Of a stretch of DNA of 51,534 bases, positions 1,641 to 49,341 are shown piece after piece. Origin of the DNA: Escherichia phage vB_EcoS_ULIM2. The translations under genes and the position numbers were made by a program. The notes below the pieces were generated by a model that worked only from the letters and a program-made list of their open reading frames with translations, made no database searches and was not told the origin of the DNA. Where the stretch lies: sequence record OQ850291. One strand, written 5' to 3'. Numbering within the stretch: the stretch's first letter is position 1; the number at the start of each line of letters is the position of its first letter.

Positions 1641-1677
1641 TGTAAAATCATCCTATCAACTTTATTCACTTAACTTT

Positions 1678-1692
1678 TAACAAAAAGTGCTA
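1678..1692 (-). promoter_or_regulatory. Conserved palindromic box (TAGCAC-N4-TGTTA) in leftward orientation
   Basis: Reads TAACAAAAAGTGCTA on the plus strand, 24 nt before the chaperone ATG; a TAGGAT -10 candidate lies 22 bp to the left (1650-1655). Confidence 0.4.
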
Positions 1693-1714
1693 TCAACCAA
1701 TCAGGAGAAACATC

Positions 1715-13029: not shown

Positions 13030-13057
13030 TTGACTAAACGCTGTTAATGGCTATAAT
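13030..13057 (+). promoter_or_regulatory. Sigma70-type promoter for the recombination operon (TTGACT-16-TATAAT)
   Basis: TTGACT at 13030-13035 and TATAAT at 13052-13057; leader TTCATCGTAAACGAAGGAGA precedes the ATG at 13089. Confidence 0.6.
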
Positions 13058-17840: not shown

Positions 17841-18774
17841 AGAGCAGGTCACTTGCTGAGAATAATTTGGCCTGCATTCCTGAACGGTATCCTCCAGGAT
17901 TCGGTATGATTATTTTTAATTGTCGGTCGTCTGCCATGTACAAGGTATCCTTGTCTGAAGGTTCGCACGCCACCCTTACTTCTCGATCACCTTTATACCT
18001 GTATGCAACCATTTCGAGGTTTTCAGGGGTGAAGCAGGCCCATACCTCTTGCTTTGTGTGAAATGCAATATGCTGAGCATCAATCCAGTTAAGGCATAAG
18101 TAGATCGCCTTTTCAGTTTTACCAGTCACGGCAACCGAACAACTCGTATATTTCTTCGCGTAAAATGACTCCCTCCCTTCCTCATCAATAATCAAAATAT
18201 TGCAAAACTCGTCATCAAGCCCATCCTCATGCACAAGTTGACACGGTATAGTGTGAAATACCGACTCACCGCCATCCTCGCTACGTTTTACGCCAACGTC
18301 GAACGATTCAGTGGGTAGAGACTCAAATATGCTTAGAGGCGTGTTTACGCGCTTCTCTGTGCGCTCCATAACTTTCATCACTGCTTCATGGTCTGCCATC
18401 ATAACATTGACGCCAGACACCGGAGTTCGGCGCGCTTTTTCATTGGCCTTGACAATGTATTCCTGCGGAACCTTTCCGAGAAATCTCCCCAGGATGTTTA
18501 TACATTCTCTGTACGGCATACCAGTTAATTTCATCAGCCAGCCAATACCAGAGTCGTTACCGCATGAGTTGCAGATCGCACCGCCGTCGCCCGGGGTGTT
18601 CAGGTTATCAGTCCAGCGAAAGCGGTCTTTACCGCCGCAGTTTGGGCAGGGTTGGTGCTTCTTATTAAAAACATCATTCGGCAATCCGCAGATTGATTGG
18701 AAAGCCTCGCGCCATAACCCCTTCATGTACGGTAAAACGTCCTCTTTCTGAAACATCATAAATTCTTCGTTCAC
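17839..18774 (-). CDS. Putative DNA primase-like protein with zinc ribbon (311 aa)
   Basis: CPNCGG-(16)-CNSCG Cys4 motif near the N-terminus; GTG start; adjacent to helicase. Catalytic motifs not confirmed. Confidence 0.4.
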   Translation of the reverse strand: MNEEFMMFQKEDVLPYMKGLWREAFQSICGLPNDVFNKKHQPCPNCGGKDRFRWTDNLNTPGDGGAICNSCGNDSGIGWLMKLTGMPYRECINILGRFLGKVPQEYIVKANEKARRTPVSGVNVMMADHEAVMKVMERTEKRVNTPLSIFESLPTESFDVGVKRSEDGGESVFHTIPCQLVHEDGLDDEFCNILIIDEEGRESFYAKKYTSCSVAVTGKTEKAIYLCLNWIDAQHIAFHTKQEVWACFTPENLEMVAYRYKGDREVRVACEPSDKDTLYMADDRQLKIIIPNPGGYRSGMQAKLFSASDLL

Positions 18775-18797
18775 TTCCAGATCTCCAAAATAAAAAA

Positions 18798-18826
18798 CGC
18801 GTAGAAGGATGTTAACCCGCTACGCG
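18798..18826 (-). terminator. Leftward terminator/attenuator between the HTH gene and the primase-like gene
   Basis: 7-bp stem CGCGTAG/CTACGCG with 15-nt loop, U-run on the minus strand. Confidence 0.45.
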
Positions 18827-18835
18827 TCGTTTGTT

Positions 18836-19288
18836 TTAACTAAAAATGCTATTGGTCGTTCCGATATCTTCCTTCTTCACAACCCGCATGAATTTCTTGT
18901 TCTTGCATCGCTTCTCAAGGCACTTGCCGTTACCATCAAACTTGAGGTCGAATCTCAGCCATGCTGCGCGGTATCCTTTACACCCCTGTCGGCGGTAAGC
19001 GCGATGCGCAGCCTCAGCACCTTGCCACGAAATCATGTTGCGTTCTTTCCAGCCTTGCACCGTCTGATTTGTTACTTTTAGTGCCTTTGCGCATGCCGCA
19101 GGGCCACCATAATATTCGATAAGCGCATCAAGTCGTGCTCGCAATCCAGCGCGTGTTTCTTCTTTATGAATATAGAATCCGCAGCGCTGTCGTGGCTTTT
19201 TGTCTTTACCGCGTCGAGTTCCGTTGTTACCATTGATGTGACGTTTATCGATTTCACCAGTTGACTCCGCGATGCGTTGAATACTCAT
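18836..19288 (-). CDS. Putative DNA-binding protein with Cro/YdaS-like helix-turn-helix (150 aa)
   Basis: AKALKVTNQTVQGWKERN resembles Cro/YdaS-type HTH; basic termini; a palindromic box lies in its leader. Confidence 0.45.
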   Translation of the reverse strand: MSIQRIAESTGEIDKRHINGNNGTRRGKDKKPRQRCGFYIHKEETRAGLRARLDALIEYYGGPAACAKALKVTNQTVQGWKERNMISWQGAEAAHRAYRRQGCKGYRAAWLRFDLKFDGNGKCLEKRCKNKKFMRVVKKEDIGTTNSIFS

Positions 19289-19301
19289 CTTGATTCTCCT
19301 A

Positions 19302-19344
19302 TAGCACTTTTTGCTAAAAACGTTTACTGTATGCCGTGTATTAT
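19302..19344 (+). promoter_or_regulatory. Box-type promoter for the helicase operon
   Basis: TAGCAC (19302-19307), TTGCTA (19311-19316), 22-bp spacer, TATTAT (19339-19344), enclosed by inverted repeat CGTTTAC/GTAAACG. Confidence 0.5.
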
Positions 19345-19368
19345 AGCGTAAACGCTACAATGATTCAA
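19340..19368 (-). promoter_or_regulatory. Sigma70-type promoter for the HTH gene, face-to-face with the helicase promoter
   Basis: Minus strand TTGAAT (19363-19368), 17-bp spacer, TATAAT (19340-19345); the -10 overlaps the plus-strand -10 by 5 bp. Confidence 0.5.
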
Positions 19369-19381
19369 AGGATTAATAGCC

Positions 19382-21400
19382 GTGACAATGAACATTAAAA
19401 AACAGATCGCATTACTTGGCGAGGACTACATAAAGCGAACTCAGGAGCGATTCACTGTCGGTGAGGTTGTTCCGTATCCGTATCAGGTTGTTGCTTACGC
19501 TGAGATCGCAAAACGCCTATCAAATTACGAGCATCCATTCTTTGTTAAAGCGTCAGTGTCTGCGGGTAAGACCATCATTTTTGCTATGGTTGCAAAGCAG
19601 TGTCAAAAAATGGGATTGAAAATGCTTGTGCTGGCACGTCAGGGTGAGATTGTCGATCAGGATAGCGAAGAGATCGACAACTTCGGGGTAACTAACTCCA
19701 TCTTCTCGGCGTCACTTGGAATAAAATCTTGCTACTTCCCGATCGTTGTCGGCTCTGAGGGTACTGTTGCAAATGGCTTAAACAATGAGTTGGCTGATTT
19801 TGTCCCGCACGTAATCGGAATCGATGAATGTCATCAGGTAGATTGGGAAGACCTTGCGCAAGCCATCGAAGGCAAGGAAACGATGGAACAGATGAGGGGC
19901 GAGAAAGGGAAAATTATCATGGACGGGGAGATTCCTCTGATTGGTAATGATGGAAAGCCTCTTCTTGGAACAAAGCGAAGCCAGTACACGATCGTAATCA
20001 TGGAGATGATGCGTCGATGTAAAGAGGTTCACGGGCATGACCTCAGAATATTTGGAATGACGGGATCTGAATTTAGGGGAGTTGTTCCAATCCTGGTTGA
20101 AAATCCAAAAGCATTGGGATTCTGGCGTGAGCGCGTAACTGATATCGACACAAACTATCTGATTGAGTTCGGCTCTGTTGTGCCGACGATATTCGGTTCA
20201 ACTGACGGCGTACACTACGATCTGGATAAGTTCAAGGCATCAAGCGAGGACGGCGTACAGGACTTTACAGAGAAAGATATGAAGGCAATGGAAGATGAGA
20301 TCCTTCATGATAAATCTCTTACTCAGCGAATCATGCAAATGGTCGCCAAAAAGGCTGAAGAACGTAACGCGGTTCTGATTACATGCGCTGGGGTGCGTCA
20401 CTGTAAAGAGGCGGCGGCGGCACTACCTCCAGGAAGCACCTATGCAATAATCACTGGCGACACAGACAACAAATCGCGCAAGAAGATTCTTGACGATGTA
20501 AGGGCCGGAAAAATTAAATACACCTTTCAGGTAATGGCGCTCACTACTGGTGTTAACGTTCCAAATTGGGATTTCAGTGTCATACTCCGCAAAATAGGGT
20601 CGCTCACACTGTTGATTCAACTTTTGGGTAGGGGTATGCGTCTGCTTAAATCCTGGCAGGTTGCTGAGGGAATGGTTAAGCAGGACCATCTTGTATGGGA
20701 TTTTGCAGGTACGATGGATGAGCTGGGTCAGCTTTATTTCGATCCGATACTTGAGCAGGCGCAATTCCAGAAGCGTTTTGAAAACGGCAAAGATCCGAAA
20801 ACATGTCCGAAATGCGGTTGCGTAAATAGCTTCTATGCTCGACGATGCGTTAATGTCATTGATGGTGAGCGTTGCGATCACTTCTGGACTTCTCAGATTT
20901 GCGAGGACCAGGTTGATGAGCGTACAGGAAAAATCCTTGTTAAAGGGTGTGGTGCAGAGAATGATGTTGTGGCACGAGTCTGTCGTTGCTGTGATGTTTC
21001 TCTTGTCGATCCTAACCTGAAGTTATCCGGTAAGGCGTACACTAAGAATGACTGGTATGAAGTAAAGAATTTTGAAGTTACTCTAACGAAGAACCAGAAA
21101 GGCATAATATACAAATACACGCTGATTAACGACGAAGGTGATGAGTTTAAGGCGTATGAAAAATTCTTCCCTGAGTCCGACTCTAAGATTTGCGGTACAC
21201 TATGGAAAACGAAAGGCGTACTTCCTCATGTGTCAGATCCTAAAATGCGTCGCTACTTTATCGGAATGAAGAATGCCATCAAGATCGTGCAGTACGCACA
21301 TCATATTGCTCACCCGGTGCGCGTAACTCATCGTCGCAACCAGAAGAAAGAGGATATTATCTCACGCAAAGATTTCGGCATGGAGGATATACCGCAATGA
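19382..21400 (+). CDS. SF2 (DEAH-type) DNA helicase with C-terminal Cys-rich zinc-binding region (672 aa)
   Basis: Motif I SVSAGKT, motif II GIDECH, motif III TGS, motif VI QLLGRGMR; several CxxC pairs near the C-terminus. Confidence 0.7.
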   Translation: MTMNIKKQIALLGEDYIKRTQERFTVGEVVPYPYQVVAYAEIAKRLSNYEHPFFVKASVSAGKTIIFAMVAKQCQKMGLKMLVLARQGEIVDQDSEEIDNFGVTNSIFSASLGIKSCYFPIVVGSEGTVANGLNNELADFVPHVIGIDECHQVDWEDLAQAIEGKETMEQMRGEKGKIIMDGEIPLIGNDGKPLLGTKRSQYTIVIMEMMRRCKEVHGHDLRIFGMTGSEFRGVVPILVENPKALGFWRERVTDIDTNYLIEFGSVVPTIFGSTDGVHYDLDKFKASSEDGVQDFTEKDMKAMEDEILHDKSLTQRIMQMVAKKAEERNAVLITCAGVRHCKEAAAALPPGSTYAIITGDTDNKSRKKILDDVRAGKIKYTFQVMALTTGVNVPNWDFSVILRKIGSLTLLIQLLGRGMRLLKSWQVAEGMVKQDHLVWDFAGTMDELGQLYFDPILEQAQFQKRFENGKDPKTCPKCGCVNSFYARRCVNVIDGERCDHFWTSQICEDQVDERTGKILVKGCGAENDVVARVCRCCDVSLVDPNLKLSGKAYTKNDWYEVKNFEVTLTKNQKGIIYKYTLINDEGDEFKAYEKFFPESDSKICGTLWKTKGVLPHVSDPKMRRYFIGMKNAIKIVQYAHHIAHPVRVTHRRNQKKEDIISRKDFGMEDIPQ

Positions 21401-21813
21401 TTACAGACAAAGGTGATTATTTAGAGTTTTACGAACGAGATCCTAGCGATACGAGAAAGGAGGATGCTCATCAAGTTGATTGTGTGTCTTGGCTGAAATA
21501 CAATTTCCCTCACCTTCTATTTTGGCACACAGTTAATGAAGGTGAAAAAACAATCACGTCGGCGCTCAGGGATGAGCAGGCCGGATTACTTAAAGGCGTG
21601 TCAGACTTCGTTATCCTGATTGGCGTCAACTCACGATACCCGTTTGCAGCAATCGAACTCAAGCGGGTTAATAAGTCAGGCAAAGGAAAGGCGTCACCAG
21701 TCAGCGACAAGCAAAGGGAATTTCTCCGAAAGGTCCGGGAGCGTGGCGGCTTCTCTGCCGTCGCATACGGATTCGAGCAATTCAAGATCGCAATTTACGA
21801 AATTATGAAATAG
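21397..21813 (+). CDS. VRR-NUC-like nuclease domain protein (138 aa)
   Basis: SDFVILIG ... AIELKR resembles the D..E.K core of VRR-NUC/PD-(D/E)XK domains; follows the helicase gene. Confidence 0.5.
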   Translation: MITDKGDYLEFYERDPSDTRKEDAHQVDCVSWLKYNFPHLLFWHTVNEGEKTITSALRDEQAGLLKGVSDFVILIGVNSRYPFAAIELKRVNKSGKGKASPVSDKQREFLRKVRERGGFSAVAYGFEQFKIAIYEIMK

Positions 21814-22594: not shown

Positions 22595-22842
22595 TGAGCG
22601 AAAAAATGGTTCCTGTTAAATTAACTGAGCAAGGTTTATGGCTTCTTTATCGCGCTACGTGCTGCGAAATTATGGAGCAAAACGGATTGACTCAGGATGT
22701 TATTGGTTGCGATCTGTGGGAGTTCACTATTTCTCTTGATATGTCTTTCGATGAGATAAAAAATGAATATATCGAGCGTTGGCCTTCAATTATCCAGAAA
22801 GACGTAGAGGAACTTAAAGCAGATACGATCGTACAGCACTAA
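22591..22842 (+). CDS. Hypothetical protein (83 aa)
   Basis: ATGA overlap with the methyltransferase stop; AAGGAAAG RBS. Confidence 0.5.
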   Translation: MMSEKMVPVKLTEQGLWLLYRATCCEIMEQNGLTQDVIGCDLWEFTISLDMSFDEIKNEYIERWPSIIQKDVEELKADTIVQH

Positions 22843-26710: not shown

Positions 26711-27118
26711 TCAAATTCCTCTTTCGTAAGCTGGAGTCTTGCGCACAATTCGACGTTCCGATCTATCAATGTTTCTACGTTCGCCAAACAATTCTTCATC
26801 ACTCATTTCTCCAATGTGCATCATCTCCCACGTATACCGATTGTTGTAGCCATCAATACACATCAGCTTCATCATTACCGGGCGTTTGATCTTTCCCTTG
26901 CACCAGTAAAATCCATCCTTGCAATCAAGATACCCCTCAGTTACACAGCGTGAGCAAAACTCCTTAGATAGCGCACTTGTAAATTCACGGCGAGTCATCC
27001 CGGCGGCCTTAGCAAATCGCTCACTTTCCTTGTGGGCGTATATAAATTTCGCTATGTGCTGCCGAGTGTATTTGTCGTAACCTTCGCAGAACCGGAACAG
27101 ATCTAAAAGAAGAAGCAT
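26711..27118 (-). CDS. Hypothetical Cys-rich protein, possible zinc ribbon (135 aa)
   Basis: First ATG at 27118 just after the upstream stop; CSRC ... CKDGFYWC Cys pairs. Confidence 0.45.
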   Translation of the reverse strand: MLLLLDLFRFCEGYDKYTRQHIAKFIYAHKESERFAKAAGMTRREFTSALSKEFCSRCVTEGYLDCKDGFYWCKGKIKRPVMMKLMCIDGYNNRYTWEMMHIGEMSDEELFGERRNIDRSERRIVRKTPAYERGI

Positions 27119-29184: not shown

Positions 29185-29263
29185 TGAATATCTCCTGATT
29201 GGTTATCTTGAACAAGGCCACTTTAACAAATGACCTTGCGGCAATATTAACAAATCGTGCTAT

Positions 29264-33114: not shown

Positions 33115-33391
33115 TCGATTACGATTATGCTTGATTGTGTGTTAATCCATGTATATGATTTGCATAAATCGCAATCGTAGACAAAATTACACCAAATTAC
33201 GCCCTATAATATACATATAGATATATGTATATATATAATATATAAGTGTTTTTTTATTTATATATATAGATACTATTATTTGTAATATGGCTGTATAGCG
33301 TGTCTACTATGTTAATCGTTGGATGCTCTGGTTATGATATTCATGTTTATATATACAGTAGTTTTATCGGCTCATATTTATATGGGAAAAG

Positions 33392-33418
33392 CGATTAACA
33401 CGATTAACACGATTAACC
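33392..33418. repeat. Three tandem copies of a 9-bp unit (CGATTAACA)
   Basis: CGATTAACA CGATTAACA CGATTAACC read directly, inside the AT-rich divergent region. Confidence 0.6.
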
Positions 33419-49297: not shown

Positions 49298-49318
49298 CAT
49301 AAAAACACTTTAACGCTT

Positions 49319-49333
49319 TAACAAAAAGTGCTA
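49319..49333 (-). promoter_or_regulatory. Palindromic box in leftward orientation at the end of paralog B
   Basis: Reads TAACAAAAAGTGCTA on the plus strand; candidate -10 TATACA 22 bp to the left. Confidence 0.35.
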
Positions 49334-49341
49334 TTATTGAA

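Follow-up and report, generated by a model that had tools for sequence, protein, structure and literature searches.

The DNA analysed here, a stretch of 51,534 nucleotides (referred to below as the window; Escherichia phage vB_EcoS_ULIM2, sequence record OQ850291), is a Tunavirus (T1-like, Drexlerviridae) genome, and the region of interest is 92-98% identical to T1-like coliphages. At this locus, a regulator gene (18836-19288, - strand) and a helicase gene (19382-21400, + strand) are oriented divergently and separated by a gap of 93 bp. The regulator gene forms its own unit, with a terminator before the primase gene. The helicase gene, whose start codon is the GTG at 19382, shares a unit with a nuclease gene, and the next promoter of the box type described below follows at 21810. 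The genes and the elements in and around the gap are listed here in order of position.

18836-19288, - strand: regulator gene, an ORF of 150 aa, orthologue of T1 CPTT1_056 and TLS gp57 (T1 annotation)
19295-19298, - strand: Shine-Dalgarno sequence GGAG of the regulator gene (from the sequence)
19299-19319, + strand: 21-nt box ctATAGCACTTTTTGCTAAAA, identical to TLS DR11, pointing to the helicase gene and centred at about -42 of the rightward promoter
19321-19327: left arm CGTTTAC of an inverted repeat, conserved in Tunavirus
19339-19344, + strand: rightward -10 hexamer TATTAT, exactly 22 nt after TTGCTA of the box, predicted start near A19351
19340-19345, - strand: leftward -10 hexamer TATAAT, a perfect consensus, predicted start near 19333/19332
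19344-19357: local palindrome TAGCGT-AA-ACGCTA, lying over the rightward start and the leftward spacer, perfect in the window
19348-19354: right arm GTAAACG of the inverted repeat, overlapping the AAACG motif that box promoters share at the start of their transcripts
19360-19388, - strand: second, weaker leftward promoter-like site TTGTCA-17-AATCAT (9/12), in Tunavirus only
19363-19368, - strand: leftward -35 hexamer TTGAAT (4/6), abutting the helicase ribosome-binding site
19368-19372, + strand: Shine-Dalgarno sequence AAGGA of the helicase gene (from the sequence and the T1 annotation)
19382-21813, + strand: rightward transcription unit, comprising the helicase gene (19382-21400, 672 aa) and an overlapping VRR-NUC nuclease gene (21397-21813)

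Packing of the gap is at its limit: the box abuts one ribosome-binding site, and the -35 hexamer, at the opposite side, abuts the other. Because 93 bp are too few for two separate promoters with their leaders, and because neither the regulator gene nor the helicase gene has a co-directional gene upstream, both promoters must lie here and must overlap. The order of primase gene, regulator gene and divergent helicase gene, with a gap of about 90 bp (84-101), recurs in all 13 further phage genomes that we fetched, which represent about 12 Drexlerviridae genera, and the same gene order is also present in Vibrio phage Vc1. Furthermore, the distance from the regulator Shine-Dalgarno sequence to the box is 0-2 nt in every genus examined (13 further genomes and 62 unique regions). 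An Rfam scan of positions 18700-19500 returned no relevant known RNA element.

A first-pass annotation of this sequence had proposed that promoters on the two strands take their -10 hexamers from the same few base pairs. The sequence bears this out: the leftward TTGAAT-17-TATAAT and the rightward TATTAT are present where they had been placed, and the shared segment, TATTATA at 19339-19345, is correct to the base. The two hexamers are offset by a single base, such that A19340 pairs with T(-7) of the leftward hexamer and T19344 with its A(-11). On the assumption that transcription begins 7 nt from each hexamer, the predicted starts lie at 19351 (+ strand) and 19333 (- strand), 18 bp apart and pointing away from each other. 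The same annotation had called the promoters ‘face-to-face’, a term said to have been used by Beck and Warren in 1988 for promoters that each lie inside the transcribed region of the other, with overlapping transcript 5' ends. This description does not fit, since the transcripts expected from the predicted starts diverge and share no bases, and the two promoters are better described as overlapping and back-to-back.

The leftward promoter has the appearance of a conventional sigma-70 promoter. Its hexamers are near TTGACA and TATAAT, its spacer falls within the usual 16-18 bp, the gene that it would serve has no co-directional neighbour upstream, and a promoter scan scored it as near-consensus (10/12). 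Computational annotations of T1, Chapo and SA32RD already put a promoter at this position, and it corresponds to P57 in the list compiled for TLS (PMC11447400, Table S1). A score of this size is not rare by itself, given that 10/12 matches number 10 in the window and 13.5 +/- 4 in shuffled sequences; only three of the ten lie wholly outside ORFs, and a fourth is 93% outside. Two extra leftward matches occur close by, namely the 9/12 site at 19388-19360 listed above and a 10/12 match at 19606-19577, inside the helicase gene. Elsewhere in the window, the best sigma-70 match is TTGACT-16-TATAAT at 13030-13057 (+ strand; 11/12), which is intergenic and, by T1 coordinates, lies upstream of recombination genes (exonuclease VIII, recombinase and SSB). 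The two early arms diverge from a non-coding region in which about 40 nt are (TA)n-like and CGATTAACA is repeated in tandem as three exact copies (33205-33244, 33392-33417).

The rightward promoter appears to be of another kind, in which the published 21-nt repeat, here ATAGCACnnnTTGnTAAAA, is followed by 22 nt and then by TAnnnT. Direct repeats of this type were described in T1-like phages with the consensus aaATAGCACnnnTTGnTAAAA, oriented with transcription and placed some 76 nt ahead of a start codon; their function was stated to be unknown, and roles as stoperator, enhancer or UP element were suggested (PMC11447400). The core of the present copy begins at A19301, 81 nt before the helicase GTG, within the usual range of 70-83 nt. 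In the window, the 13-mer ATAGCACTTTTTG occurs in 10 exact copies and a looser pattern in 21-25. Of 21 copies in the window, 14 have TAnnnT at a distance of exactly 22 nt past TTGYTA, as do 11 of 17 in T1, compared with a background of 0.015 per position. A G is present at -14 in 16 of 18 such promoters, there is no -35 consensus, and about 6 nt past the hexamer comes a motif, CATCrAaACGA, that resembles a start site and a common leader. As a working definition, we called box promoters those sites in which TAnnnT lies 22 (21-23) nt after TTGYTA and is followed about 6 nt later by an A at which transcription could start; the helicase copy has the 22-nt spacer, TATTAT and A19351.

Taken together, these regularities give good support to the reading that the 21-nt repeats belong to box promoters, with about 20 in the family. 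The repeat itself, centred at about -42, looks like the upstream element of the chief class of promoters serving early and replication genes. In the TLS paper and its tables we found nothing on a set spacing between the repeats and a -10, nor on a shared hexamer (PMC11447400). The copy that would serve the helicase gene has no -35 and no TGn, and it lacks the G at -14 that is typical of 16 of the 18 box promoters. Lacking both a -35 and that G, the rightward promoter may be weak when acting alone.

Other identities for the box were considered and rejected. Sigma-54 promoters have the spacing GG-N10-GC (TGGCAC-N5-TTGCW), and the box, with TAGCAC-N3-TTGCT, has AG in place of GG, is 2 bp too short and stands at a fixed distance from a -10 of sigma-70 type. 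Its position is wrong for a MotA box or a canonical UP element. Finally, TTGYTA cannot be a -35, because a 22-nt spacer is beyond the working range.

The box sites in the window, of which there are about 25, include those at 21810 (+), 26602 (-), 30899 (-), 34447 (+), 36178 (+) and 40319 (+). Many box promoters carry a G+C-rich inverted repeat, with fold z-scores reaching -3 to -6. The hairpin is placed between the box and the -10 at 22833 (+), 24821 (+), 26602 (-) and 31515 (-), and the -10 sits in the hairpin loop at 29263 (-), 34447 (+), 36178 (+), 37465 (+), 38822 (+) and 40319 (+). The arms differ among the copies, which suggests selection on structure rather than on sequence. Two perfect boxes, at 1676-1693 (-) and 49317-49334 (-), are found in the late (structural) region and are oriented against the local genes. 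One of them is in the leader of the tape-measure chaperone gene and adjoins its ribosome-binding site, much like the box at the regulator gene. The other is found just before the terminator located in front of the major capsid gene, and neither has a good hexamer at 22 nt. A degenerate box (ATAGCATTTTTAGTTAAA) was also seen next to the present locus (18787-18852, - strand), where it overlaps the 3' end of the regulator gene. After it come the regulator terminator hairpin, whose loop holds a -10-like TAACAT at the 22-nt register, and then the primase ribosome-binding site, such that the terminator and a putative promoter are nested.

The sharing of a -10 hexamer is a property of this locus and not of box promoters in general. 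Among the 18 box promoters in the window, only that at 19301 faces a divergent gene, and it is also the sole case in which a promoter match on the opposite strand falls on the -10 (10/12); the opposite strands of the other 17 score 4-7/12. In T1, the count is likewise 1 of 15. The hexamer found here, TATTAT followed by A, reads as a perfect TATAAT on the other strand, and the commonest hexamer in the family is TATAGT.

The arrangement is also conserved throughout the family, the 13 further genomes included. We collected 62 distinct homologous intergenic gaps from IMG/VR, and in every one of them the best leftward promoter (scores 9-11/12) shares its -10 with the box promoter, at an offset of +1 in 56 gaps and +4 in the remaining 6. 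The leftward -35 of other genera is TTGACT, TTGTCA, TTGAGT or weaker. Across these gaps the shared 7-mer forms an island of conservation, with 1.5-2.0 bits per position versus less than 0.6 bits for most of the flanking spacer. The position homologous to 19345, which is used by the - strand hexamer only, is A in 56 of 62 relatives (1.54 bits), and an A is kept at the predicted rightward +1/+2 in 60 of 62. Conservation of the 7-mer could in principle come from one promoter alone. This simpler account is argued against by position 19345 in the case of the leftward promoter and by the register of the box in the case of the rightward promoter.

Repressors of the Cro family recognise palindromic operators placed over the promoters that they control, and the first-pass annotation had drawn attention to two symmetrical elements. 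Both exist. An imperfect dyad, TAGCA (19302-19306)-N5-TGCTA (19312-19316), lies in the box and hence inside the predicted leader of the regulator mRNA, and the -10 region is flanked by the inverted repeat CGTTTAC (19321-19327) / GTAAACG (19348-19354). The pattern GTTTAC-N10-30-GTAAAC occurs once in the window compared with 0.03 expected, and at least once in 3 of 100 shuffled sequences. The flanking repeat is significant solely in Tunavirus (7-9 bp) and in a K50-like clade, where the analogue is the 7-bp repeat TTCGTTT/AAACGAA. We rejected it as a general feature because it is absent in other clades and its arms show no compensatory changes. The palindrome TAGCGTAAACGCTA is probably not an operator either, being broken in most Tunavirus genomes by variation at 19346 and 19355. 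Across the family, palindromes over the promoter region are not enriched (3.8 versus 3.3 in shuffled sequences). In summary, our search for a conserved operator for the regulator found none, and the gap holds only lineage-specific palindromes and inverted repeats. Of the earlier interpretation, the pair of divergent promoters on one -10 core, which is family-wide and specific to this box promoter, stands, and the face-to-face geometry does not.

We consider it probable that the 93-bp gap is a compact bidirectional promoter whose direction depends on its two flanks, the box to the left and the -35 to the right, with a likely hand-over between them. According to this model, host sigma-70 RNA polymerase would engage TTGAAT-17-TATAAT to transcribe the gene for the Cro-like regulator leftward, or would engage TATTAT, 22 nt past the box, to transcribe the helicase and VRR-NUC genes rightward. 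Only one polymerase would occupy the core at a time, and the flanking elements would determine its direction, with the right-hand -35 favoring leftward and the left-hand box favoring rightward transcription. Whatever boosts box promoters would then raise helicase transcription and, by polymerase competition, lower that of the regulator. Mutual exclusion of polymerases at this core is to be expected on physical grounds, as at the bacterial promoters discussed below; its use as a regulatory switch is a hypothesis. The elements themselves, the constant register between them, their conservation throughout the family and their restriction to this locus are established from sequence. That both promoters fire, that they do so from the predicted starts, and that competition and any temporal hand-over follow, we infer. 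Our literature search found no start-site or transcriptome data for any member of the Drexlerviridae.

The most serious competing explanation, to which we assign a substantial but somewhat less than even chance, is that the overlap reflects nothing more than genome compaction, with occupancy too low for the promoters to interfere, two independent units and no switch. Such an outcome has precedent, in that all five E. coli bidirectional promoters that were tested showed no competition at basal activity (PMC12825309). It also agrees with a gap so tightly packed that overlap is almost forced, and with our failure to find a conserved operator. However, the leftward promoter comes close to the consensus, and promoters of phages tend to be strong. 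Moreover, competition does appear at the bacterial promoters once one side is activated (PMC12825309), and the one-base offset has been kept in 56 of 62 relatives.

We find it unlikely that the leftward sigma-70 promoter alone uses the core, with the box serving instead as, for example, a stoperator, a hairpin in RNA or a landing site for a protein, and with helicase transcription starting elsewhere. The lack of a stated function for the box in the literature (PMC11447400) leaves room for such roles, as does the absence of a -35 and a TGn on the rightward side. The two boxes ending at 1693 and 49334 that point against local genes might be cited to the same effect, and inspection of the sequence indicates that the C/T variation in TTGYTA would preserve a G-C or G-U pair in an RNA hairpin. 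Against this reading, two thirds of the copies have TAnnnT at precisely 22 nt from the box, followed by a conserved CA start-like motif. Furthermore, the helicase gene has no upstream co-directional gene from which it could be served, and the promoter scan found no other promoter-like site on the + strand in or near the gap. One candidate replacement for the rightward -10, TACAAT at 19356-19361, is TACAAC in T1 and thus lost, and it would leave too short a leader. The converse proposal, in which the rightward box promoter alone uses the core and the regulator gene is served by another leftward promoter such as 19388-19360 or 19606-19577, is very unlikely: although two such further matches exist (9/12 and 10/12) and 10/12 matches are common by chance, these alternatives are not conserved beyond Tunavirus, the promoter on the shared core is the best leftward candidate in 62 of 62 gaps, the base used solely by the leftward hexamer is conserved, and the rightward hexamer departs from the family TATAGT toward a sequence that is perfect on the other strand.

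The regulator protein combines a helix-turn-helix core of Cro fold with an invariant basic arm at the N terminus and an extension at the C terminus, and it matches PHROG 2856, ‘transcriptional regulator’ (E = 2.7e-76). Profile matches to Cro proteins are weak (E = 0.003-0.015), and those to the Pfam families P22_Cro and YdaS fall below cut-off. An AF2 model (pLDDT 83.5) predicts an all-alpha Cro fold, for which the best Foldseek matches are Xfaso-1 Cro (3bd1; probability 1.00, target TM 0.73) and N15 Cro (6on0/2hin; TM 0.67), and the modelled structure has the all-alpha, helix-turn-helix character of the Cro family. The regulator gene fits a pattern of immediate-early expression.

The most conserved part of the protein is its basic N-terminal arm, DKRxINGNNGTRRGKDKKxR (residues 14-33), and not the helix-turn-helix. 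This arm, which is modelled at low confidence, is invariant from E. coli to Vibrio phages. The base-contact positions of the recognition helix vary between genera, whereas the box does not change across phages ranging from those of E. coli to those of Vibrio, Vc1 among them, and this mismatch weakens the idea that the regulator reads the box through its recognition helix. The N-terminal arm could read the box instead. Another candidate box-binding factor is a 135-aa protein encoded at 26714-27118 (- strand; T1 CPTT1_070, given an HTH domain in the T1 annotation), which has a counterpart with 43% identity in Vibrio phage Vc1 and no Pfam match.

A bolder variant can be drawn from these features, although we think it improbable. 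Box promoters would form an activator-dependent ‘middle’ class, and the Cro-like protein would bind the box near -42 and switch its own locus. The protein would be produced at once, since its gene has one of the genome's very few sigma-70 promoters of consensus type, and it would bind the box either with the help of a partner or through the invariant basic arm at its N terminus. At its own locus it would then turn the helicase promoter on, and its own promoter off, through competition for the shared -10 combined with its position in its own leader. If true, a single 93-bp element of a virulent phage would hold a one-way switch from early to replication genes.

T1-like phages use host polymerase only; the authors of the TLS paper found no sigma factor or polymerase gene (PMC11447400). 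Careful searches reveal just three consensus promoters in a 50-kb genome, and one of these few is physically tied to the abundant box class at the very place where the regulator meets the replication genes. As a result, the locus offers a small test bed for two questions, namely whether the 21-nt repeats are promoter elements and whether competition for a shared -10 times phage genes. It could also help to answer the more open question of what reads the box. The two elements of this locus have been listed separately for TLS and T1. In the literature that we searched, we found no statement linking them through a common -10 or placing the repeats at a constant spacing from such a hexamer.

Comparisons with other phages are instructive mostly for their limits. 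In lambdoid phages (lambda, P22 and N15), the PR/PRM region likewise places a Cro-fold regulator gene beside divergent promoters through which early and replication genes are controlled, but the likeness is loose. Each of the back-to-back lambdoid promoters has a -10 of its own, and the region has three conserved operators. Unlike in those phages, there is no cI partner and no conserved operator here, and the regulator gene is itself the divergent unit. The middle promoters of T4, composed of a MotA box and a sigma-70 -10, offer a likeness in concept only: an upstream box likewise replaces the -35, the polymerase is that of the host, and TTTGCTAAA at the present locus resembles the MotA box tttTGCTTtA. 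The MotA box of T4 is centred near -30, unlike the box here, which is centred near -42.

A close counterpart is the orthologous region of TLS, where P57 and DR11 (PMC11447400, Table S1) represent the same genes, the same box (ctatagcactttttgctaaaa), the same gap and the same position of the leftward promoter. The TLS publication lists the two elements separately and describes the repeats as having unknown function.

The architecture is not new, and is of a known type, the bacterial bidirectional promoter. In E. coli and Salmonella, such promoters (Warman et al. 2021) have starts 7-25 bp apart, most often 18, with -11A and -7T reciprocally paired (PMC10268837), and those that share a -10 account for about a fifth of E. 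coli transcripts (PMC12825309). Opposing polymerases cannot bind them simultaneously; competition is negligible at basal activity, and the opposite transcript is repressed when one direction is activated (PMC12825309). The present locus has overlapping opposite -10s with the same reciprocal pairing of -11A and -7T, and at 18 bp between the predicted starts its geometry is the commonest form. As we propose here, PacrA/acrR and PsoxS/soxR use one pseudo-symmetrical -10 for both strands, with direction biased by flanking elements or activators, and bidirectional promoters often lie between a regulator gene and its divergent neighbour. What sets the present case apart from those of E. coli and Salmonella is that it resides in a virulent phage, and that one of its directions appears to be biased by a 21-nt box specific to the phage family rather than by a -35 or a known activator site.
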